A stretch of DNA of 38,127 nt from an uncultured Gammaproteobacteria bacterium (GCA_964469995.1 CAYYAC010000001.1:1-38127); one strand, 5' to 3'; shown: positions 16,624 to 33,089, counted from the stretch's first letter. Notes: generated by a model from the letters alone, not told the origin. Numbers and translations: made by a program.

Positions 16624-16652
16624 ATTGTAGAGATTTCTAGTGTCTTTATCAA
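16624..16652 (-). promoter_or_regulatory. Putative promoter for the minus-strand PMT_2-like gene (-35 TTGATA, 17-nt spacer, -10 TACAAT)
   Basis: Read on the minus strand: TTGATA (16652-16647), a 17-nt spacer, then TACAAT (16629-16624), with the ATG at 16594 about 29 nt downstream. Hexamer matching only. Confidence 0.3.
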
Positions 16653-18280
16653 TGAAGAAATTATTAAATTGGAGAGTCATATTTATCGTAGGAGTTCTTT
16701 CTGTTTTTTTGTTTCCCTTATTCCACTTTGGAATTTATATTACTCATGATGGAGAAGCGAATATTGCAAGATTCGCAGCATACTTTAAAGCATTTTCAGA
16801 TTTACAATTTCCTCCCCGTTGGGCAGGAGATCTAAATTTTGGATACGGTTCCCCTGTTTTTATATTTTATTATCCTTTGCCCGGATATATCTCATCTGCC
16901 CTGCATTTATTTGGAATTAGTTTCGCTGACACATTTAAGATTATCATGGGAGTTTCTTTTATTTTAAATGGATTGTTTTTCTATCTTTGGTCCAAGAAAA
17001 TATTCAGGAAAGATGTTGCTTTGATAACATCAATTATATATGCATTCTCTCCCTACCATCTACTAGATATGTATGTTAGAGGAGATGTAGCTGAAATACT
17101 AGCGCTATCTATTATTCCCCTTGTCTTTCTATCTATAGAAAAATTTATAGAAAAAAAAGGTTATCTTTGGCTTTTGAGAGGAGGATTTTTTTATGCATTG
17201 TTAATCCTTTCACACAATGGGATCAGTCTTACTTTTACTCCTCTTTTTATTATCTATTGTTTCTTTAGAGCCAAAAATATGAAAATACTTTTTAACCTGT
17301 CTTTGATTTTTATACTAGGACTTTGTCTCTCGGCATTTTTTTGGATACCTGCGATAATGGAATCTAGCTTTGTGAACGCAAAGCTTTTTATAGGAGATAA
17401 TTTTAAGAGCAATTTTCTTAATTTTAATCAGATTGTTTTTTCAAAATGGGGCTTTGGCCCTGATGTAAATAGTCCCGGAGGTTTAGCTCCTCAGATAGGG
17501 ATAGTGTACATATCGAGTTTAATAATTAGCTCTCTGATATTTTTAAGAAATTTAAAAAAAGAAAGATTGTTTGGTTTCTGGATTTGTGCATTCATAGTAA
17601 CTATTTTCATGACTACGTCTTATTCATTTATTTTTTGGAAAAATATAAATACGCTGAAGTTACTGGAGTTTCCATGGAGGTTTATTGCGGTTGCTAGCTT
17701 TACTGCGTCAGCAGCAATAGGATACCTGCTCAATTTAACAAAGAATAAAATAATTTTGTTTTCTGTTCTTCTTGTTTTTCTAATTTCTGTTGTACCTTTT
17801 ATAAAAACTGAAGATTATGAAATAAAATCTGATAGTTTTTATAATGAATATCCATATACTACCTATTTTCATGGAGAAGCGAGTTCTGTTTGGACCGCAG
17901 GAGATTTTTCCGAAAATGCGAAAAATCAATTTGAAGTTATTTCAGGCAGGGCTAAAATCTTAAACATAAATAAAAAATCAGCCTTGCACACTTTTTTAAT
18001 AGATGCAGACAACAATACTAGAATTCTAGATAATACTGTTTATTTTCCCGGGTGGAGAGTAAGCATTGATAATAAAAAAGTTCCAATTGAGTTTCAAGAT
18101 ATAAACCACAGAGGACTTATTACTTTTAGTGTTCCAGAAGGAAAACATTTAATTAACATTAGGTTTGAAGAATCCTTACTAAGGTTGCTTGCTGATATTA
18201 TTAGTGTTGTAGCGCTTATACTATTTATATTGGGGTTTGTATTTAGAAAGAAAATAAAAAATTTCTTTAATAAACTATGA
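16652..18280 (+). CDS. Family-A polytopic membrane protein, putative GT-C-like glycosyltransferase
   Basis: Motifs ITHDGEANIARF, PPRWAGDLNFGYG, SPYHLLDMYVRGDVAE, ILSHN, SAFFWIPAIMES, EFPWRFI and C-terminal NTVYFPGWRVSIDNKKVPIEF...EGKHLINIRF plus a final TM helix. I prefer the ATG at 16652 over the track's GTG at 16640. Confidence 0.8.
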   Translation: MKKLLNWRVIFIVGVLSVFLFPLFHFGIYITHDGEANIARFAAYFKAFSDLQFPPRWAGDLNFGYGSPVFIFYYPLPGYISSALHLFGISFADTFKIIMGVSFILNGLFFYLWSKKIFRKDVALITSIIYAFSPYHLLDMYVRGDVAEILALSIIPLVFLSIEKFIEKKGYLWLLRGGFFYALLILSHNGISLTFTPLFIIYCFFRAKNMKILFNLSLIFILGLCLSAFFWIPAIMESSFVNAKLFIGDNFKSNFLNFNQIVFSKWGFGPDVNSPGGLAPQIGIVYISSLIISSLIFLRNLKKERLFGFWICAFIVTIFMTTSYSFIFWKNINTLKLLEFPWRFIAVASFTASAAIGYLLNLTKNKIILFSVLLVFLISVVPFIKTEDYEIKSDSFYNEYPYTTYFHGEASSVWTAGDFSENAKNQFEVISGRAKILNINKKSALHTFLIDADNNTRILDNTVYFPGWRVSIDNKKVPIEFQDINHRGLITFSVPEGKHLINIRFEESLLRLLADIISVVALILFILGFVFRKKIKNFFNKL

Positions 18281-19944
18281 AAAAACAGCACGTTATATTT
18301 TTGTCTATATTCTTGGTTGGATTATTCTTGAGATTTTATAGGTTGGGAGATATTCCCGTAGGACTGCACAGAGATGAAGCATTCTTTGGATACAATGCAT
18401 ACTCTATTCTTCATACTGCAAAGGACATGAGCGGTAATTTTCTTCCTTTGCATTTGCAGTCTTTCTTGTTTAGTCCCGCAGGGTATTCTTATTTATCTGT
18501 TCCATTTATTTTTCTTTTTGATTTGAGTTCTTTTTCTGTTCGTTTTGCATCTGCTCTGTTTGGCAGTTTGATGGTTTTGCTCTGTTATTTTCTGTCTCTG
18601 GAGATATTTGCAAACAACAGAAACAAAGAGAGCATCGGATTGCTTAGCGCATTATGCCTCGCCGTATCTCCATGGAATATAAATTTAGCAAGAACAGCAA
18701 CAGAAAGTACGGTAGTGGTGTTTTTTATAACTCTAGCGACACTTATTTTTATAAAGGGTTTTAAAAATAAAAAATTTTATTTACTTTTTATTTCTTTTGT
18801 TTTTTATTTTCTTACGCTTTTTATATATCAGGCTCCAAGAGCTTTTCTTCCTATTTTTATTCCTGTTATTTTGGTCTTTTCGCTTACCAAAATTAAGGAA
18901 ATTAAAAACAATTTAAAACTTTTGTTTCTATTTTTATGCCTAATTATTCTTCCTGTGGTTTTGATAGTTTTTTCAAATGAATTATCTCTTAGAATAAGAA
19001 CATTAAGCGTTTTTTCCAATAGTCATGCCAGTTCATCAATTCAAGAATACATAAGTACAGATGGGATAAGTTCTGTAAATACCATATTTACTAGAGTTTT
19101 TCATAATAAAATTGAAGCGTACTCAGCAGAGGTAATTAAAAATTACTTTAAGCATTTTTCATATGATTTTCTTTTTACAGACAGCGGTCTGCCTGATAGA
19201 TATAGAATTCCATCAATGGGAATAATGTATGTCTTTGATTTACCTCTATTGTTGTTTGGAATTTGGAAAATCATTGGCAGAAAGCAAAAATCAGAATTGT
19301 TTCTTTTGATATGGATTGCCCTTGCTCCAATAGGCAGTGCCCTCACATTTGATGATATTCCAAATTTGCAGAGAACTTTGATTGTTTTCCCCGCGCTGTC
19401 TATGGTAATTGGAGTTGGGGCATTTTATCTTATTTCTTATTTACTAAATTATAGAAATACAGGTAAGTATGTTTTACTTGGTTTATTATTTATTGTTTTT
19501 TATTCATTTGGTTTCTATATTCACCAATACTACGTGCATGCTTCAGCTTACAACCCTTGGTATAGGCAAGATGGATATAAGCAATTAGTTGCAAGGGTAA
19601 ATAATTTTTTACCTGGATACAGCAGGGCTGTTATAACAAATAGAGAATCTGCTCCGTCTGTATTTTTTCTTTTTTATCTAAAGTACAGCCCATCTAAATT
19701 TCAAAAAGAGTCAGCAATGTCAAACAAAAATACTTCCGATAGTACTTCTTTTGATAAATTCTATTTTTCAGAGGAAGAATGTCCCTTTGGCTCTGCAGAC
19801 ATAAAACCCATTGTCCCTCCTCAAAAGAATGTTTTATATGTAAATAGCGGGAATTGTAAAGCTCCACAAAATGCTAAGATATTGGATATAATTAAAAGAA
19901 CAGACGGATCAGAGGCATTTGAGATACTTTCTTTAAATGAATAA
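18277..19944 (+). CDS. PMT/ArnT-like (GT39/GT83-type) GT-C membrane glycosyltransferase, tandem copy 1
   Basis: 555 aa. Motifs LHRDEAFFGYNAYS (DE motif in the first loop) and VSPWNINLARTATES. Polytopic core plus a ~130-aa soluble C-terminus (FFLFYLKYSPSKFQ). ATGA overlap upstream. Confidence 0.8.
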   Translation: MKKQHVIFLSIFLVGLFLRFYRLGDIPVGLHRDEAFFGYNAYSILHTAKDMSGNFLPLHLQSFLFSPAGYSYLSVPFIFLFDLSSFSVRFASALFGSLMVLLCYFLSLEIFANNRNKESIGLLSALCLAVSPWNINLARTATESTVVVFFITLATLIFIKGFKNKKFYLLFISFVFYFLTLFIYQAPRAFLPIFIPVILVFSLTKIKEIKNNLKLLFLFLCLIILPVVLIVFSNELSLRIRTLSVFSNSHASSSIQEYISTDGISSVNTIFTRVFHNKIEAYSAEVIKNYFKHFSYDFLFTDSGLPDRYRIPSMGIMYVFDLPLLLFGIWKIIGRKQKSELFLLIWIALAPIGSALTFDDIPNLQRTLIVFPALSMVIGVGAFYLISYLLNYRNTGKYVLLGLLFIVFYSFGFYIHQYYVHASAYNPWYRQDGYKQLVARVNNFLPGYSRAVITNRESAPSVFFLFYLKYSPSKFQKESAMSNKNTSDSTSFDKFYFSEEECPFGSADIKPIVPPQKNVLYVNSGNCKAPQNAKILDIIKRTDGSEAFEILSLNE

Positions 19945-21577
19945 AATTCTTAATTGGAAATTTTTACTTATTCTCTTTGTAGCAGTTTTTTTGCGTTTTT
20001 ATCAGCTTGGAATAAATCCTCCATCTTTGACTTGGGACGAGGCTTCCTGGGGATACAACGCATATTCTTTGGGAATTGATGGAAAAGATGAATTTGGAAG
20101 ATTTCTCCCGCATGATTTCTTAGAATCATTTGGAGATTTTAAGCCACCAATGTACGCATATTTAGATACCTTTCCTGTAAAAATGTTTGGCTTAAATGAA
20201 TTTTCAACAAGATTCCCATCTGCATTTTTTGGAGTTTTAACTGTAATTTTTACATATTTTTTAACAAAGAACATATTTTACAAATCGGAAAATAGAAACA
20301 AATATGCTCTTTTTGCATCTTTTGTTCTTGCGATATCTCCCTGGCATATAATGCTTTCAAGAGCCGCTTTTGAAGCAAATGTTGCCACCTTTTTCCTTGT
20401 GTTTGGGGTATTTTCTTTTCTTGAGGGGATTCAAAGTAAAAAATGGTTTCTTATTTTATCTGCAATCTCATTTACTCTGTCTATGTATACTTTTAATACC
20501 GCAAGAATCATTGCTCCGCTTTTGGTAATTATATTAGCGGCAGGTTTTAGAAAAGAATTGATTAGATGCAGAAAAGAAACAATAATAGCAATTATTATAG
20601 GGGTTGTGTTAATTTTGCCTACAGCAAAATTTTTACTTTCTCCTCAGGCGGGGCTTAGGTTTAAGGAAGTAAACATATTTTCAGATTCGGGAGCTATAGA
20701 TACTTCAAATACGGAAATAGCAAATGATAACAATAATTTAGTTTCCAAAGTTTTGCACAATAGGAGGTTTATATATGCATCAAGTTTTGTTAATCATTAT
20801 TTTGATAATTTAAGTCCGAGCTTTCTTTTTATAAAAGGGGATGGAAATCCAAAATTTTCAACTCAGAATGTGGGTCAGATGTATCTTTGGGATTTGCCAT
20901 TTTTTATTGCGGGCATTTTATTTATTTTCAAAAAAAGAGAAGGAGCTTGGTGGATTATTCCGTTATGGCTTCTTGTTGCAATAATTCCAGCTGCAACTGC
21001 AAGAGAGACGCCCCATGCGCTGAGAGTTGAAGCTGCTTTGCCCATGTTTCAGATTATGACTGCAGTTGGGATTGTTATATTTTTGAATTTCATAAAGAGC
21101 GTAATTTCAAAAGCGAACGCAAGGACTATAATTTTTGGATTAACATTTTTCTTTCTTTTATTTAATTTTGCATATTTTTACCATGAATATTTAACATATT
21201 ATCCTCAAGAATTTTCAGGAGAGTGGCAATATGGATATAGAGATTCAATTAACTACATTTTAGTAAATCAAAATAAATACGATCAGATTAATATTACAAC
21301 AGAGTTAGGCAGACCTTATATATATTATCTTTTTTACGAAAAGACAAATCCTATAATTTTTAGAAAAAGTGCGCAAATTACAAGAGATTCTTTTGGGTTT
21401 GTTTCCGTAAATGGATTTGGAAAATATAAATTTGCTCAAAATTTGGGAGATATTAAGAATCCGAGCAAAAAAATACTGTATATAAATATCCCTAAAAATA
21501 CTCCTTCAAAAGCAAACATAATTAAAAACTTTTACTTGCTTAACGGGGGAATATCTTTACAGGCTTATACTTTGTGA
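19937..21577 (+). CDS. PMT/ArnT-like GT-C membrane glycosyltransferase, tandem copy 2
   Basis: 546 aa. Motifs LTWDEASWGYNAYS, ISPWHIMLSRAAFEAN, PHALRVEAALPMFQI and C-terminal YIYYLFYEKTNP. ATGAATAA overlap upstream. Confidence 0.8.
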   Translation: MNKILNWKFLLILFVAVFLRFYQLGINPPSLTWDEASWGYNAYSLGIDGKDEFGRFLPHDFLESFGDFKPPMYAYLDTFPVKMFGLNEFSTRFPSAFFGVLTVIFTYFLTKNIFYKSENRNKYALFASFVLAISPWHIMLSRAAFEANVATFFLVFGVFSFLEGIQSKKWFLILSAISFTLSMYTFNTARIIAPLLVIILAAGFRKELIRCRKETIIAIIIGVVLILPTAKFLLSPQAGLRFKEVNIFSDSGAIDTSNTEIANDNNNLVSKVLHNRRFIYASSFVNHYFDNLSPSFLFIKGDGNPKFSTQNVGQMYLWDLPFFIAGILFIFKKREGAWWIIPLWLLVAIIPAATARETPHALRVEAALPMFQIMTAVGIVIFLNFIKSVISKANARTIIFGLTFFFLLFNFAYFYHEYLTYYPQEFSGEWQYGYRDSINYILVNQNKYDQINITTELGRPYIYYLFYEKTNPIIFRKSAQITRDSFGFVSVNGFGKYKFAQNLGDIKNPSKKILYINIPKNTPSKANIIKNFYLLNGGISLQAYTL

Positions 21578-21578
21578 T

Positions 21579-23243
21579 ATGAATAAGAAAGCGTTTTTAC
21601 TTTTATTGTTAGTAATCTTTGCAGGAGCAATTCTAAGATTTTGGCAATTGGGAAAAGTTCCCATATCCCCAGATTGGGATGAAGTTGCCCTTGGATATAA
21701 TGCATATTCAATGATGCAAACAGGAAGAGATGAATATGGAAAATTTCTCCCTATTGTTATGCGTTCTTTTGATGATTATAAGCCTGCTCTATATTCTTAT
21801 ATTGCAATTCCATCGGTTGCCATTTTTGGGCTAAATGTTTTTGCCGTAAGACTTCCTTCTGCTATTTTTGGCATTTTGACAATTATCGCAGTCTACTTCT
21901 TACTAAGAGAGCTTTTTGGTAAAAAGGGTTTAAAAATTGAAGCAAAGGGTTTTATCTTTGATATCCCAATTGTGGGAGCTTTTCTTTTAGCAATTTCTCC
22001 TTGGCATATTCAGTTTTCAAGAATTGCATTTGAATCTAATATTGGACTTTCTTTCAATATATTTGCCGCCTTATTTTTTATCAAAGGATTAAAAAAACCT
22101 TGGTTACTTTCACTTTCTACTGTTTTTGCTGCTCTGTCGATATATGTTTATCAAAGTGAAAAAGTCTTTACTCCGTTATTTTTTCTGGCCTTGGTGATTA
22201 TTTATTCAAAGGGATTACTTTCAAAACCTAAAAAATATATAATTTCCGCGACAATTTTTGGATTCATTCTTATTATTCCAATGCTTTTTTATACGCTTGG
22301 AAACTCAAATGCCTTAGAAAGGGCAAAGGGGGTAAGTATTTTTTCCGGTAGTACTCAGCTTCTGGCTCAAGATACAAAAAGATTGCTTTTAGATAGTAAA
22401 AATCATGATTTTTTAGGCTTGGTCTTAGATAACAGAAGGATTATGTTTACAAAAGAAATTATTAGCGGATATTTATCACACTTTGATTTTAATTGGCTCT
22501 TTATAACTGGAGACATTTCTCGTCATCACGCACCTAGCATGGGGCTTTTATATCTACTTGAATTGCCATTTTTACTCATTGGGATTTATTTTCTCATATT
22601 TGGTCCATTTGACAGAAAAACTAAAATTTTTATATTTGCGTGGTTTCTGATTGTTCCAATTCCTGCTTCAATTACGACAGGAGTCCCTCATGCGGTAAGG
22701 ACTCTTAATTTTCTGCCAACGTTTCAGATATTTACGGCAATAGGAATAGTTATTTCGGTAATTTTTATAAAAAGATTTAAATATTATCCTATTCTTTTCA
22801 TCATATTTATTTTTATATTTGGGTTTAATTTTTTATATTTCTTAGATCAATATTTTATTCAGCAGAATTATTTTAATGCTAAGGATTGGCAATATGGATA
22901 TGAGAAGATTGTGCCAAAGATACAAAAAATATCGAAAAATTATAAAAAGATTATAGTGTCAAACCAAGCTCCAATGGACCAATCGTACATGTTTTTTCTT
23001 TTTTACATGAAATATTCTCCTAAGCTTTATCAAACTGAAAGCATTAATGCTTCGGGTGGTTTTAGAGAGAATCATTCTTTCTCTAATTTTGAATTTAGAC
23101 CAATAAAATGGCGGGAAGATCAAAAATTGTCAAACACTTTGTTTATTGGACGCCCAGATGATTTTTCTGGCTCTGTCAGCTCTATTTCTAGTGTCAATTA
23201 TCCAAATGGAGAAGGAGCAATGAAACTTGTTGAGGTAAAATGA
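21579..23243 (+). CDS. PMT/ArnT-like GT-C membrane glycosyltransferase, tandem copy 3
   Basis: 554 aa. Motifs PDWDEVALGYNAYS, ISPWHIQFSRIAFESN, PHAVRTLNFLPTFQI and C-terminal SYMFFLFYMKYSPKLYQ and FSNFEFRPIKW. Confidence 0.8.
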   Translation: MNKKAFLLLLLVIFAGAILRFWQLGKVPISPDWDEVALGYNAYSMMQTGRDEYGKFLPIVMRSFDDYKPALYSYIAIPSVAIFGLNVFAVRLPSAIFGILTIIAVYFLLRELFGKKGLKIEAKGFIFDIPIVGAFLLAISPWHIQFSRIAFESNIGLSFNIFAALFFIKGLKKPWLLSLSTVFAALSIYVYQSEKVFTPLFFLALVIIYSKGLLSKPKKYIISATIFGFILIIPMLFYTLGNSNALERAKGVSIFSGSTQLLAQDTKRLLLDSKNHDFLGLVLDNRRIMFTKEIISGYLSHFDFNWLFITGDISRHHAPSMGLLYLLELPFLLIGIYFLIFGPFDRKTKIFIFAWFLIVPIPASITTGVPHAVRTLNFLPTFQIFTAIGIVISVIFIKRFKYYPILFIIFIFIFGFNFLYFLDQYFIQQNYFNAKDWQYGYEKIVPKIQKISKNYKKIIVSNQAPMDQSYMFFLFYMKYSPKLYQTESINASGGFRENHSFSNFEFRPIKWREDQKLSNTLFIGRPDDFSGSVSSISSVNYPNGEGAMKLVEVK

Positions 23244-24880
23244 GTAAAATCTCTTTATATTTGCTTTTAATAGTTTTAATTGCTTTTGTTTTTAGGTTAT
23301 ATCAAATCTCCAGCGTACCTCCCAGCGCTTCATTAGATGAAGCAACTATCGGGTGGAATGCCTATTCAATTCTAAATACAGGAGCAGACGAGTATGGATA
23401 CAAATTTCCTATTCTTCTTAGGGCATATGATGATTGGAGGCCTGCGCTCTATGTCTATTTAGTTTTGCCGTTTGTTAAACTTTTGGGACTGGGCATTTTG
23501 TCCGTAAGACTTCCTTCAGTTATTTTGGGAACAATCTCTGTTCTTGGTACCTATTTTTTGATAATGGAGCTTTTTATCAAATATAAATACAGAGATTATC
23601 TTGCTCTTTTATCATCTTTTTTTCTTGCTATTTCTCCTTGGAGTATTTATATTTCCCGGCTAGGACATGAAGCCAATGCAGGATTTGCATTTGGTATTTT
23701 ATCTGTATTCTTCTTTTTAAAATTCAAAAATACCTTAGGTAGAATTAATATCTATCTTGCTTCTTTATTTTTTGCTTTATCTTTTTATGCATATCAATCT
23801 GAAAAAATATTTATTCCCTCTATTGTTATACTGCTTGCACTGCTGTTTAGGAGAGAGCTTCTAAAAAGAAAAAAAGATATAATTTTTGCATTTATTCTGG
23901 GTTTTATTATTTTAATACCTGTCTTGAAAGAGACACTTTCTCCAAACGGCCTCATAAGGCTTAAGGGTACAACTGCGTTTGATATTACAAGAGCAGAATA
24001 TGTACAGGCTGCAACAGAAAGACTCAAGGCAAGGAATGATAAAAATTTCATAGCGGAGCTTATTAATAATAATAGGATAATAACGTCAGAAATTTTTATT
24101 GGGAATTATATTTCACACTTTAATCCCTTGTGGCTTTTTTCAAATTATGGATTGGAAGATTTTAAAGTTCCTGGAATGGGACTTATGTTCTTGTTTGAAA
24201 TTCCATTAATGTTAATAGGAATTGCATATTTATTTTTTGGAAATTTTGATAAAAAAATAAAAATCTTAATTGGAGTATGGATACTTATTTCCCCCGTTGC
24301 TAGTTCTATATCAACAGGTGCTCCGCAGGCAATGAGATTTTATATTGTACTTCCTACCTTTCAAATAATTTCCTCTCTTGGTCTTTTGTATTTGATAAGC
24401 TTAGCTAAGAAAGATTCTACAAGAAAAACCATTTTTTCTTTAACTATTGGAGTAATGGTTTCAAGTATCGTATTCCTCATAAATCAATATTTTATTGAGT
24501 TTCCAAAGCAAAATTCTTCCTCTTTTCAATATGCAATTTCAAACGCAATGGGTTTTATAATTAAGAATGAAGATAAATACAAAAAGATTGTAATCTCTAA
24601 TAGAAAAAACTTAAACCAATCTTATATGTTTCTGCTATTCTATTCTAAGTATGACCCAATTTTATATCAGAAGCAGGGAGGTACAAAATCCGCTGGATTT
24701 GAAGCAACTCACAGATTTTCAAATTTTGAATTCAGAGCTTTAAATTGGTCAAATGATAAATATGCAAAGAATACTTTATTTATTGCAAATACTTCATCTA
24801 TTCCAAAAGGGGAAAAAGCACTAAAGATATTTGCAAATCTTAATAACCAGGGGGTAATAGAAGTAATATGGAAAAAATGA
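23240..24880 (+). CDS. PMT/ArnT-like GT-C membrane glycosyltransferase, tandem copy 4
   Basis: 546 aa. Motifs ASLDEATIGWNAYS, ISPWSIYISRLGHEAN, PQAMRFYIVLPTFQI and C-terminal SYMFLLFYSKYDPILYQ and FSNFEFRALNW. Copy 3 is its closest relative. ATGA overlap upstream. Confidence 0.8.
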   Translation: MSKISLYLLLIVLIAFVFRLYQISSVPPSASLDEATIGWNAYSILNTGADEYGYKFPILLRAYDDWRPALYVYLVLPFVKLLGLGILSVRLPSVILGTISVLGTYFLIMELFIKYKYRDYLALLSSFFLAISPWSIYISRLGHEANAGFAFGILSVFFFLKFKNTLGRINIYLASLFFALSFYAYQSEKIFIPSIVILLALLFRRELLKRKKDIIFAFILGFIILIPVLKETLSPNGLIRLKGTTAFDITRAEYVQAATERLKARNDKNFIAELINNNRIITSEIFIGNYISHFNPLWLFSNYGLEDFKVPGMGLMFLFEIPLMLIGIAYLFFGNFDKKIKILIGVWILISPVASSISTGAPQAMRFYIVLPTFQIISSLGLLYLISLAKKDSTRKTIFSLTIGVMVSSIVFLINQYFIEFPKQNSSSFQYAISNAMGFIIKNEDKYKKIVISNRKNLNQSYMFLLFYSKYDPILYQKQGGTKSAGFEATHRFSNFEFRALNWSNDKYAKNTLFIANTSSIPKGEKALKIFANLNNQGVIEVIWKK

Positions 24881-26514
24881 AATCAAAATTATTTTTTATT
24901 CTAGTTTTACTATTAGGATTTATGGTTATCCTAGATTTATTCCACGCAGGTCTTCCCATAACTCATGATGGTCAGGATCATGTTGCTAGAATTGCAAATT
25001 TTTATACATCCTTAGCAGAGGGAAATATTATTCCAAGATGGGCAGGGAATCTAAATTGGGGGTATGGTCATCCAATTTTAGAATTTCTTTATCCCTTGCC
25101 ATCATATACTGCTTCTTTCTTCCATTTTGTAGGTTTTTCTTTGATAGATTCGGTTAAATTTGTATTTGGTCTTGGAATTATTTTATCCGGAATTTTTATG
25201 TTTGTCTGGCTAGCTGAATTTCTAGGACCTGAAGCATCTTTGGTAGGAAGTATTTTGTATATGCTCGCGCCTTATAGATTGGTTGATCTTTATGTAAGAG
25301 GTGATATCGGTGAAAATCTTGCCTTTGCTTTTATGCCATTTGCCCTATATTTTATTCTTAAGCTTAGCAGGAAAGTAAAAGCTCACTATATTTTAGCAGT
25401 AGCATCCGGAATCGCCTTACTAATACTTTCCCATAACGCTATAAGTTTGATTTTTATGCCCTTTATTGTTTTTTATGGATTGTTTATTGGTTTTTATACA
25501 AAAGAAAAGAAAAGATATTTTCTAAACTTTGCTTTTAGTGTTGTTCTTGGACTTGGATTGTCTGCATTTTTTTGGATACCTGGACTTCTAGAAGCAAAAT
25601 ATACGTTAAGAAATATTGTCACAAAGGGCGGATATCTTGCAAACTTTGTTAATCTTGAGTCAATTTTTTATGGACCATGGAATTATGGAATATCTGGTCA
25701 ATTCACTGTTCAGTATGGAATTATGCAATGGTTATTTATAATTATCTCTCCGTTTGTTGTCATATATCTTAAATTGAAAAAAAATAAAGATTTGATTATT
25801 TTATATTCTTTAATAATTTATTTACTTCTTGCGACTTTTATAATGTTTCCTCAGTCTAATTTTATATGGAGCAGATTTATTATTTTACAAAACTTTCAAT
25901 TTCCCTGGAGGTTTCTTGGAATAATTGTTTTTTCTTCTTCTTTTATTGCAGCTTTAGTTTATTCTAAAATGCCAAACAAAATTCAAAAATATGCAATTGT
26001 ACTTTTTATTATTTTGTTTTTGCTTTTGAATAAAGATTATTGGCACGCAAGCGGTTATTCTCAGAAGCCAGAGCAATTTTTTACCGGTATTTATAATTCA
26101 ACAACAGACACAGGAGAAAGTTCTCCAATTTGGTCAATAAGATTTATGGAGAAAAGGCCGATTGTTCCAATGGAAGTAATAGGAGGAAAGGGAACTGTAG
26201 TGGAAACTTTAAGAAGATCTACTTTGCATTCATATAAAATAGAAGCTTTAGACAAAGTTCAGCTCAGAGAAAATACTGTTTATTTTCCTGGGTGGGAAGT
26301 AAGAGTAGATGGAAAAACAGTTCCAATTGAATTTCAAAGCGGAGTAAACAGAGGAGTTATTACCTTTTTTGTAGAAAGAGGAAAGCATAGTGTTGATGTA
26401 GTATATACTGAAACAAGGCTCAGATTTATTTCAGATTTGATAAGTGCTGGTTCACTTTTCATGATTTTGATTTATAATATCTGGAGCATTAAATTATGGC
26501 GAAAATTTCTGTAG
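24868..26514 (+). CDS. Family-A polytopic membrane protein, putative GT-C-like glycosyltransferase
   Basis: Motifs ITHDGQDHVARI, IPRWAGNLNWGYG, APYRLVDLYVRGDIGE, ILSHN, SAFFWIPGLLEA, FQFPWRFL and NTVYFPGWEVRVDGKTVPIEF...RGKHSVDVVY. An in-frame ATG at 24877 would instead give an ATGA overlap with the upstream stop. Confidence 0.8.
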   Translation: MEKMKSKLFFILVLLLGFMVILDLFHAGLPITHDGQDHVARIANFYTSLAEGNIIPRWAGNLNWGYGHPILEFLYPLPSYTASFFHFVGFSLIDSVKFVFGLGIILSGIFMFVWLAEFLGPEASLVGSILYMLAPYRLVDLYVRGDIGENLAFAFMPFALYFILKLSRKVKAHYILAVASGIALLILSHNAISLIFMPFIVFYGLFIGFYTKEKKRYFLNFAFSVVLGLGLSAFFWIPGLLEAKYTLRNIVTKGGYLANFVNLESIFYGPWNYGISGQFTVQYGIMQWLFIIISPFVVIYLKLKKNKDLIILYSLIIYLLLATFIMFPQSNFIWSRFIILQNFQFPWRFLGIIVFSSSFIAALVYSKMPNKIQKYAIVLFIILFLLLNKDYWHASGYSQKPEQFFTGIYNSTTDTGESSPIWSIRFMEKRPIVPMEVIGGKGTVVETLRRSTLHSYKIEALDKVQLRENTVYFPGWEVRVDGKTVPIEFQSGVNRGVITFFVERGKHSVDVVYTETRLRFISDLISAGSLFMILIYNIWSIKLWRKFL

Positions 26515-27251
26515 TTTTAGCAACATATAATGAAGAGAAAAATCTTCCTGCTTGTCTGGATTCTGTAAAGAATTTTGCAGATGAAATAGTCATTGTAGAT
26601 GGAACTTCAAGTGATAATACAGTTGAGATAGCAAAAAGATATAAAGCTAGGGTTAAAATTGTAGAAAATCTTCAAAATTTCCACATAAATAAACAGAAGG
26701 CAATAGATATGGCAGCTTGTGATTGGATATTGCAGCTTGATGCAGATGAAAGAGTTTCTCCGGAATTACAATCTGAAATAAAATCAAAAATTAATGACGC
26801 AAAGCTTAATGGGTACTGGCTTCCTAGGAAGAATTGGTTTTTAGGAAGATTTTTAATGAAGGGAGGACAATATCCTGACTATACTTTGAGGCTTTATAGG
26901 AATGGCAAAGGCAGGCTTCCTCAAAAAGATGTACATGAGCAAGCAGTAGTCGAAGGAGAATTAGGATATTTAAAAAATCCTTTAATTCATATGGCTGACC
27001 CAGAGTTCGGAAGGTATTTCAAGAGATGGCAAAGATATACAGCATTTGCAGCAAAACAGCTAAAAGACGCTGGAATAAAATGGTACAACCCTATAATTGC
27101 CGTGAAACACTTATTTATTCTCCCTACTTGGTGGTTTCTTTTGACCTATGGAAGACATAAGGGCTTTATGGACGGCTGGCAGGGGTTTGTATTTTCTGCT
27201 TTCTCAGCTCTTAGATTTCCTGTATCATATATAAAGTATTTAGCATTATGA
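26496..27251 (+). CDS. GT2 glycosyltransferase, WaaE/KdtX-like subgroup
   Basis: Motifs MAKISVVLATYNEEKNLPACLDSVKNFADEIVIVDGTSSDNT, LDADERV, YPDYTLRLYRNG and a hydrophobic tail. It is the third paralog, after those at 3517 and 5329. Confidence 0.75.
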   Translation: MAKISVVLATYNEEKNLPACLDSVKNFADEIVIVDGTSSDNTVEIAKRYKARVKIVENLQNFHINKQKAIDMAACDWILQLDADERVSPELQSEIKSKINDAKLNGYWLPRKNWFLGRFLMKGGQYPDYTLRLYRNGKGRLPQKDVHEQAVVEGELGYLKNPLIHMADPEFGRYFKRWQRYTAFAAKQLKDAGIKWYNPIIAVKHLFILPTWWFLLTYGRHKGFMDGWQGFVFSAFSALRFPVSYIKYLAL

Positions 27252-28222
27252 AAATTTTAGTAACAGGCGGAGCGGGGTATATTGGAAGTTTTATGGTAAA
27301 ACGTCTTCTAGAAAGAGGAGATGAGGTTTTTATAATAGATAATTTATCTAGGGGGCATAAAGAAGCAATAGACAGCAGAGCCGCTCTTCTAGTGGGAGAT
27401 CTTCTTGATAAAAATTTTCTTTCAAGTGTTTTTTTAGAAAATAAATTTGATGCTATTGTTCATTTTGCGGGGTATATCTCAATGGGAGAGTCAGTAGAGA
27501 AGCCTTTTGAATATTTTAATAATAATGTTTTTGGATCATTGAATCTTATAAACCAAGCCAAGGAAAATAATTTGGATAATTTCATTTTTTCGTCTACCGC
27601 TGGAGTTTATGGAAATCCAATTCAAGTTCCTATAAAAGAAGATCACGAAAAAAATCCAACAAATCCATATGGTGAATCAAAACTTATGGTAGAAAAAATA
27701 CTTAGCTGGTTTAATAAAACTCACGGCTTATCTTTTACTGCTCTTAGATATTTTAATGCGGCAGGGGCAGCGCTTGATGGGACGTTAGGAGAAAATCATA
27801 ATCCCGAAACCCACATAATTCCAAATGCAATAAAAGCAGCATTGGAAAATAAGCCTTTTTCTCTTTTTGGAAATGACTATGATACGAAAGACGGTACATG
27901 CGTTAGAGATTATATTCATGTTTTAGACTTAGTTGAAGCTCATGTCCTTGCAATAGAAAAGATGAAAAAAGATAAGGGCGCATATTTCTATAATGTCGGT
28001 ACTGGAAATGGATATTCAAATAGAGAAATTTTGGAAATGATTAAAAAAGTATCAGGAATTGACTTTGAAATTAAAGAAGAAAACAGGAGGCCTGGGGATG
28101 CAAATGTTTTAATTGCAGACTCAACACTTATTAAAGATCAACTGGGTTTCTCTCCTAAATATTCTGACCTTGAGACAATAGTTAATACTGCATGGAAATG
28201 GCACTCCGGACAAAAACAATGA
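27248..28222 (+). CDS. galE: UDP-glucose (or UDP-hexose/HexNAc) 4-epimerase, SDR family
   Basis: 324 aa. Motifs MKILVTGGAGYIGS (Rossmann), FSSTAGVYG and PYGESK (YxxxK), with a GalE-like length and C-terminus. ATGA overlap upstream. Confidence 0.85.
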   Translation: MKILVTGGAGYIGSFMVKRLLERGDEVFIIDNLSRGHKEAIDSRAALLVGDLLDKNFLSSVFLENKFDAIVHFAGYISMGESVEKPFEYFNNNVFGSLNLINQAKENNLDNFIFSSTAGVYGNPIQVPIKEDHEKNPTNPYGESKLMVEKILSWFNKTHGLSFTALRYFNAAGAALDGTLGENHNPETHIIPNAIKAALENKPFSLFGNDYDTKDGTCVRDYIHVLDLVEAHVLAIEKMKKDKGAYFYNVGTGNGYSNREILEMIKKVSGIDFEIKEENRRPGDANVLIADSTLIKDQLGFSPKYSDLETIVNTAWKWHSGQKQ

Positions 28223-28746
28223 AACAAAAATTGCTTATAATTTTTGCCTTCCTATTTATTTTTCTTTACTCTTCAGCATCAAGCAACGCTAAATCTTCTT
28301 ATGTACTTCCTTATCCTTCTTCCATGCCGGGAAGTTTCTCTTACAAGCCCCATCTTTTGTTAGAAACCTTATCTAAGTATTGGTATTTTGGAAACTTTGG
28401 CCAATTTACATATAATCTTAAACAATCAGATAAATATTTGGTTGAAGCAAAAACGCTTTTTGAATATAACCAGTATTTATTAGGCTATAATGCTTTGCAA
28501 AAATCTGATTTATTTTTTAATCAAACTCTTCCAAACTTAGATAAAGCAAGAAAAGAAGGAAAAGATATATCTGAAAACTTAAAACTTTTAAAATCTGCTT
28601 CTGAAAAACACATAGAAGTTTTGATAAAGATTGGAGATGAGGTTCCGTCTAATTTTACATGGCAGCCTGAGAATGCTTCTGCATCTGTTTTGAATTTGAA
28701 ATCTTCTATAGAAAATTCAATTAAAATAAGAAAGAGTTACTTATGA
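28219..28746 (+). CDS. Secreted/envelope helical protein of unknown function
   Basis: The start at 28219 (ATGA overlap with the galE stop) gives the signal-peptide-like N-terminus MKQKLLIIFAFLFIFLYSSASSNA. The mature part begins SSYVLPYPSSMPGS and is rich in K/E/L (helical). It resembles a YxLPYPG-type N-terminal motif that I recall in many CPR hypothetical proteins. I cannot confirm the family identity. Confidence 0.6.
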   Translation: MKQKLLIIFAFLFIFLYSSASSNAKSSYVLPYPSSMPGSFSYKPHLLLETLSKYWYFGNFGQFTYNLKQSDKYLVEAKTLFEYNQYLLGYNALQKSDLFFNQTLPNLDKARKEGKDISENLKLLKSASEKHIEVLIKIGDEVPSNFTWQPENASASVLNLKSSIENSIKIRKSYL

Positions 28747-29879
28747 AAAAAGTGTTATTTTTGTCTTATTCGCTGTTCTTGTTATCCTTAACTTTTTTTT
28801 CTTATCTTTTCATAGATCCCAATTTAAATTATCTAAAAAATCTTTATTCTGAATTTATTTTTAATCATAGAATAGAGACAACGTTAATATACTCTCTTTT
28901 AATTATAATATTCTTTATTTTTTATGGCATTTTTATAAAACAGACAATAGATAATAAATTTACAAAAAAAGACATCAAATTTCTGCTTATTATAACTGGG
29001 ATTATACTTTTTTTAGCCTACCCCGCAATGCTTTCTTTTGATATCTTTAACTATATTCTCACTGCGAAGGTTGCTTATTTTTATCATGAAAATCCTTATG
29101 TTGTTATGCCTGTTCAGCTTGCTAGGGAGCCTCTTTTAGCATTTGCGCATGGAGCAAATAAAATAGCGTTATATGGGCCTACGTGGATTCTGTTTACCGC
29201 CTTGCCATATTTCTTAGGGTTTGGAAATTTTATAATCACTCTTTTTAGCTTCAAAATTGTATCAGTTGTATTTTATTTTTTGACCTCTTGGCTAATTTTT
29301 AAAATAACAAAGAATATTTTATCTGTTGTAATTTTTGCTTTAAATCCTTTAGTAGCTATAGAGGTTTTGCTAAGTGGACACAATGATATTTTTATGATGT
29401 TTTTGGCAATTTCTGCTCTTTTTTTCTTATCCAAAAAGAAAATCTTTTTATCATTTATAATCCTTTTTATGTCTATTTTTGTGAAATACGCTACCTTATT
29501 CTTGCTTCCCATTTTTTCTTATGTATTGGTTTCGTATCTTAATAAAAAATACGTAAATTGGAATAAAGTTTATCTTTTATCTTCAGTTGCTATGATAGTC
29601 CCTTTTTTTCTAGCTCCAATTAGAGAAGAAATATATCCATGGTACGCCTTATGGTTTTTAACTTTTTCTTGTCTTTTGCCAAAGAATAAGAATTTGCTGA
29701 TTCTTTCTGGAGTTTTTTCTTTTTCTCTTCTTTTAAGATACATTCCCTTCATGCTCCTTGGTACTTATTTTTCTCCAACACCTTTTATTAAAATTGTTGT
29801 TACTTTTGTGCCCCCTGTTGTTGCGCTCGTTTATATTTTTATTTCTGAAAAATTATGGTTAAAAAAGTCTTATCTCTAA
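28743..29879 (+). CDS. Polytopic membrane protein, GT87/DUF2029-like GT-C candidate (second paralog)
   Basis: 378 aa with about 10 helices. Motifs SFDIFNYILTAKVAYFYHENPY and SGHNDIFMMFLAISALFFLSKKK...FVKYATLFLLP. It parallels the CDS at 13620. ATGA overlap upstream. Confidence 0.6.
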   Translation: MKKVLFLSYSLFLLSLTFFSYLFIDPNLNYLKNLYSEFIFNHRIETTLIYSLLIIIFFIFYGIFIKQTIDNKFTKKDIKFLLIITGIILFLAYPAMLSFDIFNYILTAKVAYFYHENPYVVMPVQLAREPLLAFAHGANKIALYGPTWILFTALPYFLGFGNFIITLFSFKIVSVVFYFLTSWLIFKITKNILSVVIFALNPLVAIEVLLSGHNDIFMMFLAISALFFLSKKKIFLSFIILFMSIFVKYATLFLLPIFSYVLVSYLNKKYVNWNKVYLLSSVAMIVPFFLAPIREEIYPWYALWFLTFSCLLPKNKNLLILSGVFSFSLLLRYIPFMLLGTYFSPTPFIKIVVTFVPPVVALVYIFISEKLWLKKSYL

Positions 29880-31483
29880 TAATTATTTCACTTCTCGCAG
29901 CTTTTGCAGGTTTTGCTCTTTTGCATCCAGGGCTTGTGCCAACTCATGATGGGGAATACCACGTTGTCAGATTCTATGAATTTAATAAAGCATTTATGGA
30001 TGGAAATCTGTATCCAAGATGGGCTCCAGACTTAAATAACGGGTTTGGACTTCCTCTTTTTAATTATGTATATCCTCTTCCAAATTACATTGCAGTTTTA
30101 TTCCATGTTATTGGAATGTCTTTTATTGATGCTTTCAAAATTGAAATGTTTCTCTCTCTTGTAGTTGGAGGGATATTTTTTTACCTTTGGGCAAAGCAAT
30201 TTTGGGGAGAATTTGGAGGAATGGTCTCTGCAATTGTTTTTACATTTTCTCCTTATAGATTTGTAGATATATATATTCGAGGTTCTGTTGGTGAATGTTT
30301 AGCTCTTGCAATTTTTCCTGCATTACTTTGGTCAATAACAGTTTTTATAAAAACCAGGAATAAAATATTTTTTCCCATATCTTCTTTACTTTTTGCTTTG
30401 CTTATACTCTCTCATAATATTTTGGCATTAATGTTTTCTGTTTTTTTGTTTCTTTATGTTCTATGTTTCATTTTTCAAAGCAAAGACAGAAGGAAATTTA
30501 TTCTTGAGTGTAGTGGAATTTTACTGCTTGGTCTTTGTGCATCATCTGTTTTTTGGCTTCCAGCGCTTTTGGAGAAAAAATTTGTTTTAGGACTGGAGAT
30601 TTTTGATGTTGCAAGTAATTTCCCAATGTTTTATCAGCTTATAATTCCAACCTGGGGATCTGGTTTTTCCGGTGCGGGTATACAAGATGAGATTTCTTTT
30701 CAAATCGGCATAGCGAATTTATGCTCTATAGTTCTCGGTATCGTGGGTTTCTTTTTTATTAAGAAAGATAATAAAATTGTGAATTTATTTTTTATAATCT
30801 CATCCTTTGTAGTTATTTTTTTGATGCTCGCCCCTTCTCTTTTTTTATGGCAGCATATTCCACTTCTTAATTATTTTCAATTTCCATGGAGACTTTTAAG
30901 TCTTGAAATAATAATTTGTTCTTTTTTGGCAGGGTCAGTTATCAGATTTAAAAAACTAGGTAAATTTGTAGGATTATTTTTAATTATTTTATCCGTTCTC
31001 TTAGGTATTGGTTATTCAAAGCCTGCCTATTATTTAGATAGAACAGATGTTTACTATGAAACACATTCTAATTTTATAGATGGTACAAACAGTCCGGGGA
31101 ATGCATTTAATACAGTTTGGTTTGCAGGTCAGGACAAAAAAACTCAAAAATTTTCTGAATCTGACAAGTCTGTGACAGTTAATTTCTCCAAGATTTCAAC
31201 ATCAGATTATATAGCAAGAACTAATTCTCTTCGTAGCTCGAATATAATTGTAAACACTGCATATTTTCCTGGTTGGAATGCATATATTGATGGTAAAAAA
31301 GTAAATACAAAAATAACAAAAGAAGGTCTTTTTTCTTTTAGTCTTCCTTCGGGAAAACATTTTCTTGAGGTAAAGTTAGAGGATACGTTTATTAGGAAAA
31401 TATCTATTATTATTTCTATATTTTCATGTGCTGTTTTACTTAGTCTCATGTGGTCTGCTAGAATAAAAGGTAAGCATGAATAA
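29855..31483 (+). CDS. Family-A polytopic membrane protein, putative GT-C-like glycosyltransferase
   Basis: Motifs PTHDGEYHVVRF, YPRWAPDLNNGFG, SPYRFVDIYIRGSVGE, ILSHN, SSVFWLPALLEK, FQFPWRLL and NTAYFPGWNAYIDGKKV...SGKHFLEVKL plus a final TM helix. Confidence 0.8.
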   Translation: MVKKVLSLIIISLLAAFAGFALLHPGLVPTHDGEYHVVRFYEFNKAFMDGNLYPRWAPDLNNGFGLPLFNYVYPLPNYIAVLFHVIGMSFIDAFKIEMFLSLVVGGIFFYLWAKQFWGEFGGMVSAIVFTFSPYRFVDIYIRGSVGECLALAIFPALLWSITVFIKTRNKIFFPISSLLFALLILSHNILALMFSVFLFLYVLCFIFQSKDRRKFILECSGILLLGLCASSVFWLPALLEKKFVLGLEIFDVASNFPMFYQLIIPTWGSGFSGAGIQDEISFQIGIANLCSIVLGIVGFFFIKKDNKIVNLFFIISSFVVIFLMLAPSLFLWQHIPLLNYFQFPWRLLSLEIIICSFLAGSVIRFKKLGKFVGLFLIILSVLLGIGYSKPAYYLDRTDVYYETHSNFIDGTNSPGNAFNTVWFAGQDKKTQKFSESDKSVTVNFSKISTSDYIARTNSLRSSNIIVNTAYFPGWNAYIDGKKVNTKITKEGLFSFSLPSGKHFLEVKLEDTFIRKISIIISIFSCAVLLSLMWSARIKGKHE

Positions 31484-33089
31484 AAAATATATATTGTTGT
31501 TTTTTGTTATTCTTTTGGCATCTTTTTTAAGATTATGGCAGCTTGGTAGCGTTCCTTCTGGAGTTCATGCGGATGAGGCAAATCAGGGGTATACAGTTTT
31601 CAGTCTTTTAAAAACAGGAGTAGATCTTAGCGGAAAATTTAACGTGTTTGGCTTAACAGACACAAATACAGGAGGAACGTATCCTCCTATTTATAGCTAT
31701 GTGTTAATGCCACTGGTTAATTTTTTTGGACTTAGCATTTCCGTTGTCAGATTTCCGTCTGCAGCTTTTGGTATCATTTCTGTATTTCTTGTATTTCTTG
31801 TTTCAAGAAAATTATTTGGCTCTTATTATCTTTCTTTGATTGCAGCACTTCTTTTTGCTCTTAATCCTTGGGCGATACATATTTCAAGGCAGGCATTAGG
31901 GGAATCTATTTCTCTTTTTACCGTGCTTTCTGGGATAACATTTTTTCTGTATTCCGATAAAAACAAATATCTTCTTTTTCTGTCTTCTCTTGTGTTTGGT
32001 TTGTCGTTATATTCGTATGATGCTCCAAAGGTATTCTTGCCATTGTTTATTCCATTGCTTGTATATTTTTACTGGGATAAAATAAAAAAATTCAGAAAAG
32101 CAATATCTATATCAGCAGTCATATTTGCCATATTTTATTTGTCTATATTCTTTGGAAGCGTTTCTGATTATAAAAATGAATCCATTTTTGGTTCCGTTTC
32201 GGAAAATGTAGATATAGAAAGAACTCTGACAACTGCGCCATTGTGGGAGAGTTCAATTTTTCATAATAAATTCTCTGTTTCTCTTAAAAGACTCGAGACA
32301 AGCTATTCTACTATCTTTTCCGTAAATTGGCTTTTTGTTAATGGAAGCGGAAATCTTCAGCATTCTGTAGGAAATCATGGCGAATTTTATCTCTTTGAGC
32401 TTCCATTCTTTTTTATTGGAATGTATCTTGCTTTCAAAAAGAATACTAAGCTTGGATTTTTTCTTTTAGGCTGGATGCTTATTGGGGCTCTTCCAGGAGC
32501 AGTAACAGCAACTGGTAATTTTGTATATCGTTCAGTTCATGTACTGCCTGTTCCCATACTTTTTTCATCACTTGGAATAGTGTGGTTTGTTAAAATTTTA
32601 AGAAAAAGTAAAGACATTGTTAAATATCCAGTTGGAGCACTCTTTATTCTTTTTTCTTTAATATATGTTTGTTCTTATCTTTTTACATATTTTTTTGATT
32701 ATCCAGTTTATGCATCCGAGTATTGGGCAAAACAGCAAAATAGCGCGATACTATACGTAGAGAAAAACAAAAGTAACTATGCGAACGTTTTCGTAGATGG
32801 GGGACAGCCATGGGCGACAACTTATGCCTATTTTTATAAAGTAGACCCAACTTATTACCAGAGAGCAGTTGGAAATAAAACTATGTATAAAGGCATAGAT
32901 GTAATAAAAATTGATAATATGTATTTTGGAGATTTTAATCTAAGCGAGATTAGTACTCCCTCTGCATTTTTTCCTAAAGACTCTATGATAATTACAAATT
33001 CAACAAATTTTTCAAATCAAAAATTTATAGAATCTTTTAAAGATCCCGGAGGAGTTAGGGACATTTTTAAAGTTTTCATAGTAAGATAA
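31476..33089 (+). CDS. PMT/ArnT-like GT-C membrane glycosyltransferase, dispersed fifth plus-strand copy
   Basis: 537 aa. Motifs VHADEANQGYTVFS and LNPWAIHISRQALGES, with a polytopic core and the C-terminal soluble domain TTYAYFYKVDPTYYQ. ATGAATAA overlap upstream. Confidence 0.8.
   Translation: MNKKYILLFFVILLASFLRLWQLGSVPSGVHADEANQGYTVFSLLKTGVDLSGKFNVFGLTDTNTGGTYPPIYSYVLMPLVNFFGLSISVVRFPSAAFGIISVFLVFLVSRKLFGSYYLSLIAALLFALNPWAIHISRQALGESISLFTVLSGITFFLYSDKNKYLLFLSSLVFGLSLYSYDAPKVFLPLFIPLLVYFYWDKIKKFRKAISISAVIFAIFYLSIFFGSVSDYKNESIFGSVSENVDIERTLTTAPLWESSIFHNKFSVSLKRLETSYSTIFSVNWLFVNGSGNLQHSVGNHGEFYLFELPFFFIGMYLAFKKNTKLGFFLLGWMLIGALPGAVTATGNFVYRSVHVLPVPILFSSLGIVWFVKILRKSKDIVKYPVGALFILFSLIYVCSYLFTYFFDYPVYASEYWAKQQNSAILYVEKNKSNYANVFVDGGQPWATTYAYFYKVDPTYYQRAVGNKTMYKGIDVIKIDNMYFGDFNLSEISTPSAFFPKDSMIITNSTNFSNQKFIESFKDPGGVRDIFKVFIVR

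Follow-up and report, generated by a model that had tools for sequence, protein, structure and literature searches.

In mycobacteria, arabinan and mannan are assembled by many GT-C enzymes that use polyprenyl-phosphate-sugars outside the membrane. Other described GT-C proteins include the YfhO family, that is, Bacillus subtilis and Staphylococcus aureus YfhO (lipoteichoic acid N-acetylglucosamine transferases), Listeria YfhO (wall teichoic acid) and the streptococcal PgfM1 and PgfM2; the PMT_2/ArnT-type proteins (GT39/GT83-like; GtlB, GacL and YkcB); and the oligosaccharyltransferases STT3, PglB and AglB (GT66). A three-component model, in which a GT2 enzyme, a flippase and a GT-C enzyme work together, rests on CsbB/GtcA/YfhO and related systems (PMC8035078, PMC11898649). 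Between the better-known YfhO and PMT_2 stands PF10131 (PTPS_related), a large family without known activity, which is listed in the Pfam GT-C clan CL0111 with function unknown (PMC7801869). Here we describe four PF10131-like genes, paralogs A to D, in a stretch of 38,127 nucleotides (GCA_964469995.1 CAYYAC010000001.1:1-38127; the window, 38 kb) deposited under the title 'uncultured Gammaproteobacteria bacterium'.

The four genes are new members of a known, curated and biochemically uncharacterised family. A reading of the window made earlier without database searches (the original prediction) had singled them out as a four-copy family of membrane enzymes, which is correct but largely expected. 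Each copy is most probably an integral-membrane GT-C glycosyltransferase that takes a single sugar from a polyprenyl-phosphate-sugar, once this has been flipped, and adds it to an acceptor outside the cytoplasm.

Four PF10131-like paralogs

The four genes are located as follows.

1-1371, + strand: PF10131-like paralog A, cut at its N-terminus by the window edge and lacking TM1 (the first transmembrane helix), the THDG loop and ~115 residues
16652-18280, + strand: PF10131-like paralog B, 542 amino acids (aa); the copy used for the structure model
24868-26514, + strand: PF10131-like paralog C, 548 aa
29855-31483, + strand: PF10131-like paralog D, 542 aa

Open reading frames are present at all four positions, and the paralogy claimed in the original prediction is evident. 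Pairwise blastp comparisons give E-values of 3e-36 to 4e-96 at 28-34% identity over nearly the full length (3e-36 to 3e-43 for paralog A against the other three), and the motifs PY..Y.RG..E, ILSHN, PWR and YFP.W are invariant and in the same order in a MAFFT alignment of the four copies. Paralog B has an alternative GTG start at 16640, and the database protein (P0001) begins at the ATG at 16652. Each paralog has orthologs elsewhere at 40-66% identity, those of paralog C reaching 66% in other loci, compared with 28-35% between the paralogs; this dates the duplication far back and indicates that each of the four copies has been maintained separately. They are real, anciently diverged paralogs. 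Each represents an orthogroup of long standing that is conserved in its own right, and the copies therefore probably have different donor sugars, linkages or acceptor sites.

The three complete copies pass the Pfam gathering score for PF10131 of 26.4 bits, paralog B at 56.2, C at 31.9 and D at 65.9 bits, and the family that had been offered as a guess is thus the right one. Paralog A does not match PF10131; it scores 34.7 bits with YfhO over the transmembrane core (cut-off 28.5 bits), and 254 bits with a family hidden Markov model built from an alignment of its relatives. No other Pfam family is matched by any of the four copies at E≤0.01, and at this threshold a link to 6-pyruvoyl-tetrahydropterin synthase is unsupported by the window. 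The NCBI product name of close relatives is '6-pyruvoyl-tetrahydropterin synthase-related protein', and the family seems to carry its name for historical reasons.

The C-terminal ~60-100 residues, including YFPGW, match the extreme C-terminus of the YfhO, PgfM1 and PgfM2 models. The YfhO matches in paralogs C and D are confined to the last ~50-65 profile positions (for C, positions 783-829 of 835, with 30.3 bits), and for paralog D the C-terminus aligns with the final ~95 positions of PgfM1 and PgfM2 in NCBIfam. These C-terminal matches are all that NCBIfam contributes; it lacks a model of PF10131-like proteins at the family level. Judged by these profiles, PF10131 membership applies to the transmembrane core only, and the C-terminal part appears to be of the YfhO kind.

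A set of 56 diverse relatives, no more than ~50% identical to one another, was used to assess conservation. When searched against Pfam, 46 of these match PF10131, 14 YfhO, 9 PMT_2, 2 STT3 (weakly) and 1 an AftD GT-C domain. Clustered at 50% identity, the family comprises 21,049 clusters with E≤1e-3 and, at the stricter E≤1e-30, 6,456. The representative library also contains very long proteins with several PF10131-like stretches (P0135, P0152, P0225, P0123 and P0130), for example one of 3329 aa with six and one of 1670 aa with four; these are either GT-C modules truly fused in tandem or neighbouring genes that were called as one.

The conserved elements of paralog B are listed below in its own residue numbering, with counts among the 56 relatives.

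16742-16753, + strand: T31-H32-D33-G34 in extracytoplasmic loop 1, right after TM1; D33 (56/56) is the proposed catalytic acid/base, H32 49/56
16817-16822, + strand: R56-W57 of PRWAGDLN.GYG.P in loop 1; R56 55/56, W57 50/56
17048-17095, + strand: S133-E148, SPY..D.YVRGD..E, at the outer end of TM3/TM4; P134, R143 and E148 each 53/56
17204-17218, + strand: ILSHN, residues 185-189, at the outer TM5/TM6 turn (modelled helices 171-187 and 189-206); H188 54/56, N189 43/56
17342-17362, + strand: W231-E237 (WIPA..E), where the long outer loop that follows TM7 begins; P233 56/56, E237 51/56 with Asp in 4 more
17669-17680, + strand: F340-P-W-R343, at the outer start of TM10; P341 54/56, W342 54/56, R343 55/56
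17930-18166, + strand: modelled extracytoplasmic beta-sandwich, residues 427-505, eight strands, carrying YFPGW
18041-18055, + strand: YFPGW within the beta-sandwich; P466 56/56, W468 55/56
18176-18241, + strand: modelled TM12, residues 509-530, the helix that anchors the C-terminus; a basic tail on the cytoplasmic side comes after it

R40 of loop 1 is also conserved (54/56). D33, invariant throughout the set and in a loop predicted to be extracytoplasmic, is the acidic residue just after TM1 that the original prediction had placed where GT-C enzymes have their catalytic acid. The sharing and order of the motifs that it had listed stand as well, but not all of their details: the copy at 16652 reads THDGEAN and not THDG.xH, the truncated paralog A has YFPAW, and the D of YVRGD (D145) occurs in just 9 of the 56 relatives, which rules out 'RGD' as a motif.

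The 11-nt DNA string ACTCATGATGG, which encodes THDG and had been remarked upon as identical in the complete copies, is found exactly three times (16742, 24961 and 29942), compared with 0 expected in shuffles. This identity follows mostly from the conserved peptide together with the codon bias of the window (CAT for 75% of His, GAT for 79% of Asp and ACT for 37% of Thr), and it tells us nothing beyond the conservation of the protein. We reject it as a sign of gene conversion or recent duplication in view of that bias, the differing DNA on the flanks of the three copies, the 28-35% identity of the paralogs and the closer orthologs.

Fold, topology and relation to YfhO and PMT_2

An AlphaFold2 model of paralog B, built from a 57-sequence alignment, has a pLDDT (predicted local distance difference test) of 94.2 and a pTM (predicted template modelling score) of 0.94. 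Compared with the PDB using Foldseek, the model retrieves GT-C enzymes only at ranks 1-26, with probability 1.00 and E-values of 7e-6 to 4e-3; these include yeast and human STT3, PglB, AglB, AftA, AftD, ArnT, Pmt4 and ALG12. Past rank 26 there are unrelated low-probability folds (phage tail, NADPH oxidase, MFS transporters) together with weaker GT-C matches at E >0.01 (EmbB, Pmt1-Pmt2, PIG-U and Pmt4). Neither of two family profiles finds a sequence relative in the PDB, one (A2) returning nothing at E≤10 and the other (A5) a chance match to LptC (E 1.6). A GT-C fold of the PF10131-like proteins is thus supported by the model.

The modelled architecture consists of 11 core transmembrane helices (TM1 spans residues 7-24), then the beta-sandwich, and then a twelfth, anchoring helix. 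The N-terminus is basic (MKKLLNWR), as is the C-terminal tail (RKKIKNFFNKL; 5 K/R in 12 residues), and all the other short K/R-rich loops lie on the same side as both termini (SKKIFRKD, EKKG, RAKNMK, RNLKKER and TKNK). The positive-inside rule accordingly assigns the N-terminus to the cytoplasm and the THDG loop to the exterior. The beta-sandwich and the motifs SPY..R..E, SHN, WIPA..E and FPWR are likewise predicted to be extracytoplasmic, which would place the conserved polar residues D33, H32, R40, R56, R143, E148, H188, E237 and W342-R343 at the outer membrane face. The original prediction had named a different fold, a cytoplasmic THDG loop, or a member already characterised as something other than a glycosyltransferase as findings that would speak against it; what we find is a predicted GT-C fold, a THDG loop likewise predicted to face outward, and no characterised member in the literature searched.

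The window also carries genes of the two better-known neighbouring families, and these provide a direct comparison.

6062-8416 and 9739-11973, + strand: two YfhO genes flanking a GT4 gene; PF09586 83.9 and 76.5 bits, respectively
18277-19944, 19937-21577, 21579-23243 and 23240-24880, + strand: four tandem PMT_2 genes between paralogs B and C (Pfam)
14843-16594 (- strand) and 31476-33089: two more PMT_2 genes (Pfam)

All six PMT_2 genes exceed the PMT_2 gathering score. An hhalign comparison of the family profile with the window YfhO (93%, E 3e-7, 283 columns, over TM1-TM8) sets PRWAGDLN.GYG.P on the YfhO PLWNPYSFAGTPLL; its alignment of loop 1 is ambiguous, with THDG on a non-conserved YfhO stretch, and was not used. 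The comparison with a profile of the six PMT_2 paralogs (96.6%, E 5e-10, 317 columns) sets SPY..YVRG..E on the PMT_2 SPW.I.SR.A.E, and D33 follows TM1 at the spacing seen for the invariant D34-E35 in the window PMT_2 proteins.

With YfhO the PF10131-like proteins have in common the clan, the C-terminal YFPGW beta-sandwich and final helix, and an expected undecaprenyl-phosphate (C55-P)-sugar donor outside the membrane, supplied within a system of GT2, flippase and GT-C enzyme (PMC8035078). Unlike the window YfhO proteins they are ~240 residues shorter (542 versus 744-784 aa), and WNPY and AGTP(LLAN) are absent in 56/56 relatives, with PRWAGDLN.GYG.P in that place. The core match to YfhO is seen in paralog A only, and on these grounds membership of YfhO (PF09586) is ruled out: the proteins are related to the family without belonging to it.

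The likeness to the PMT_2/ArnT type is seen in the alignment of SPY..R..E with SPW..R..E and in the structural matches to ArnT and Pmt4. The differences are that H-D-G-(E) replaces the PMT_2 D-E, there being no DE dipeptide in loop 1, and that the beta-sandwich and C-terminal anchor helix are not seen in the window PMT_2 proteins. None of the four copies has a PMT or PMT_2 Pfam match at E≤0.01; membership of PMT/PMT_2 (GT39-like) is ruled out by this and by the missing DE, leaving remote homology only. STT3, PglB and AglB, with the mycobacterial AftA and AftD, are the best structural matches, yet at 12-15% sequence identity. The soluble domain of the PF10131-like proteins is different from that of the oligosaccharyltransferases and much smaller, and no WWDYG-type motif is present in the four copies or the 56 relatives, which rules out membership of GT66.

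The absence of both the YfhO signature and the PMT DE motif had been noted in the original prediction, and from it a separate lineage had been deduced. This is accurate insofar as PF10131 is a distinct Pfam family, but the separation is incomplete: homology to both YfhO and PMT_2 is detectable, the C-terminus is of the YfhO type, and paralog A scores with YfhO. On these comparisons the PF10131-like proteins behave as a compact intermediate between YfhO and PMT_2 that carries the YfhO C-terminal module.

Proposed reaction and its alternatives

Donor-supply genes in the cluster comprise three small GT2 genes, two MOP flippase genes, and GalE-like and RmlC-like genes. The GT2 and flippase genes are as follows.

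12907-13617, + strand: small soluble GT2, 236 aa, candidate polyprenyl-phosphate-sugar synthase (NCBIfam)
1328-2074 and 35836-36582: two similar small GT2 candidates
2061-3515, + strand: MOP/Wzx-type flippase (Polysacc_synt_3, E 1e-50)
36579-37853: second MOP flippase

The small GT2 at 12907-13617 has near full-length, sub-threshold NCBIfam matches to AglJ (120 bits), PgfS, PpgS and ArnC, and all three small GT2s are candidate polyprenyl-phosphate-sugar synthases. In NCBIfam the flippase at 2061-3515 has matches to MOP flippase and 'O-glycosylation flippase' models.

The reaction that we infer, with its catalysis, donor, acceptor and roles for individual residues, would proceed as follows. A small cytoplasmic GT2 would use a nucleotide sugar to charge undecaprenyl (polyprenyl) phosphate with a sugar, and a flippase would carry the lipid-linked sugar to the outer leaflet. 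There, Arg and His residues of the PF10131-like protein would bind the donor phosphate, D33, E148 and E237 would possibly hold a metal, and D33, as the catalytic acid/base, would activate the acceptor hydroxyl. The single sugar would pass to a surface acceptor, which could be a glycopolymer, either of the wall or lipid-linked, or else a protein rich in Ser/Thr, and which the beta-sandwich may help to hold. The four copies would likely form a series of steps together with the cluster's PMT_2, YfhO and MptA-like GT-C enzymes.

Several points weigh against this proposal. The literature searched on PF10131/PTPS_related yielded no demonstrated activity for any member of the family, as the original prediction had supposed, and catalysis is therefore extrapolated from fold and clan. 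The PF10131 match itself spans residues ~70-390, from profile positions 1-3 to ~300-317 of 621, and the query-normalised TM-scores against GT-C enzymes of known structure lie at a moderate 0.37-0.47. That D33, R143, E148, H188, E237 and R343 cluster in space is deduced from the predicted topology, and the identity of the acceptor is a deduction too. As to the supply of donor, the three small GT2s align nearly full length with AglJ, PgfS, PpgS and ArnC at scores far under the NCBIfam equivalog cut-offs, and the cargo of MOP/Wzx flippases is more often an oligosaccharide on a diphosphate than a single sugar on a monophosphate.

A different use of the same fold would be the en bloc transfer of a preassembled oligosaccharide from undecaprenyl diphosphate, by an oligosaccharyltransferase like PglB, STT3 or AglB or by a functional counterpart of WaaL. 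The top Foldseek matches are indeed STT3, PglB and AglB, two of the 56 relatives have a weak STT3 match in Pfam, and the cluster includes two MOP/Wzx-type flippases, one of them matching the O-glycosylation model. PglB has a divalent-metal site, and the near-invariant acidic residues D33, E148 and E237 would suit one of that kind. We nevertheless regard en bloc transfer as unlikely, because the WWDYG-type motif is missing, the soluble domain is a small YfhO-type beta-sandwich and not of the oligosaccharyltransferase type, and neither an initiating phosphoglycosyltransferase nor a Wzy polymerase is recognisable within the window. Sequence homology, moreover, is to YfhO and PMT_2, which use monophosphate donors, and four paralogs alongside eleven other GT-C genes fit stepwise addition better than a single step. 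It is very hard to credit that the proteins have a GT-C fold and are not transferases at all, serving instead as a scaffold or acceptor-binding subunit, as PIG-U does in the glycosylphosphatidylinositol transamidase, or as binders of lipid-linked sugars. A weak structural match to PIG-U (8imx_U, rank 30) and the lack of a demonstrated activity in the literature searched would agree with such a role; an invariant Asp where the catalytic residue is canonically found, a complete array of conserved charges at the outer face, and conservation across the 21,049 clusters (E≤1e-3) are typical of an active site and argue against it.

The neighbourhood of the genes bears on a further alternative, in which PF10131-like and PMT_2 proteins are obligate physical partners that form heteromers like Pmt1-Pmt2. 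Neighbours were counted for 126 full-length PF10131-like genes in 78 other loci. PMT_2 is the commonest GT-C neighbour, with 50 same-strand slots (53 including three on the opposite strand), and in many Levybacteria loci the ortholog of paralog B directly precedes a PMT_2 gene, the stop codon of the one often overlapping the start codon of the other. The pairing is not exclusive, however: the neighbour is often YfhO (23 slots) or another PF10131-like gene (18 slots), the remaining 149 slots are taken by other genes, and 48 of the 126 genes have no adjacent GT-C gene whereas 78 have at least one. Copy numbers in the window are also unequal (four PF10131-like versus six PMT_2), and the sequences indicate no interface. 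Obligate heteromers therefore seem to us improbable, somewhat more so than en bloc transfer. The original prediction had proposed a functional partnership with PMT_2; the co-clustering on which it drew is conserved, but it is not specific to PMT_2.

Transfer of single sugars by each copy is the reading that we prefer. The organisms are uncultured; what has been obtained is a confident model, a topology, and targets for mutagenesis (D33, H32, R56, R143, E148, H188, E237 and R343).

The gene cluster and its distribution

The window has a G+C content of ~32% and is 99% coding, and the + strand carries every gene except one. The cluster includes, over positions 1-35257, 15 putative GT-C genes (four PF10131-like, six PMT_2, two YfhO and three weaker candidates), which cover 64% of the 38-kb window; this density is its most notable feature. 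Further genes in the window encode eight GT2 and two GT4 proteins, two MOP flippases, one GalE-like epimerase and one RmlC-like protein. The weaker GT-C candidates are as follows.

13620-14846: GT87-like
28743-29879: MptA-like
34139-35257: third weaker candidate

Distribution was examined using the 80 best loci among one-per-species genomes. Almost all are labelled as Levybacteria, Gottesmanbacteria, Woesebacteria, Shapirobacteria or other Patescibacteria, with a few under other or generic titles. The related chromosomes and contigs encountered are smaller than ~1 Mb. In these loci YfhO ... PF10131-like is again found ahead of a run of PMT_2 genes, and the Levybacteria contigs L001, L002-L012 and L039 have a gene order similar to that of the window. 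The window contains a very large surface-glycosylation cluster of an uncultured, ultra-small bacterium of the Microgenomates/Levybacteria type. Many records of relatives (loci L004, L006, L010, L014-L017 and others; GTDB representatives) share the title 'uncultured Gammaproteobacteria bacterium', which on records with Microgenomates-type clusters looks like a placeholder or a mislabel.

The share of the window given to GT-C genes, the conserved arrangement and the related chromosomes and contigs of less than ~1 Mb together indicate a heavy investment in extracytoplasmic glycosylation, which bears on the attachment of these bacteria to hosts and on how hosts perceive them. A search for literature on GT-C enzymes in Candidate Phyla Radiation bacteria found nothing relevant. 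So many GT-C genes in one cluster recall the mycobacterial arabinan and mannan assembly line. A wider hypothesis, conceivable though on the whole doubtful, is that the cluster encodes a Microgenomates-specific extracytoplasmic assembly line, in which ~15 GT-C enzymes (PF10131-like, PMT_2, YfhO and MptA/GT87-like) would add one monosaccharide at a time from polyprenyl-phosphate donors to make a glycopolymer of the cell surface or a dense coat of glycoproteins, in a manner resembling the mycobacterial building of lipoarabinomannan and arabinogalactan. The four PF10131-like orthogroups would then make distinct linkages, the H-D motif would define a GT-C subclass with a mechanism of its own, and the coat would be among the main factors behind the episymbiotic lifestyle of these ultra-small cells.

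The sole minus-strand gene (14843-16594) encodes a PMT_2 paralog of 583 aa and lies head-to-head with paralog B across a gap of 57 bp, or 45 bp if the GTG at 16640 is the start. Among the six PMT_2 copies it has diverged furthest, with 17% identity to that at 19937-21577.

Three of the GT2 genes (26496-27251, 3517-4419 and 5287-6084, all on the + strand) are paralogs of 250-300 aa, the first of which shares 19 bp with the end of paralog C, stop codon included. NCBIfam matches of all three are to generic GT2 models, far below cut-off, and the matches of 26496-27251 and 5287-6084 include, also far below cut-off, a model for SunS-type peptide S-glycosyltransferases. They could be cytoplasmic glycosyltransferases acting on a lipid-linked or protein acceptor.

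The gene at 28192-28746 (+ strand) encodes a 184-aa protein with a hydrophobic, signal-like N-terminus and no Pfam or NCBIfam match. In locus L001 the equivalent slot, between the epimerase and MptA-like genes, is occupied by a gene with a faint DUF5667 match, and the product may be a conserved secreted component of the cluster.

The GC skew is positive in nearly all 2-kb windows, with one negative value near 28-30 kb, and the cumulative curve climbs almost steadily; together with the near-uniform gene orientation this is consistent with a location of the cluster on the leading strand.

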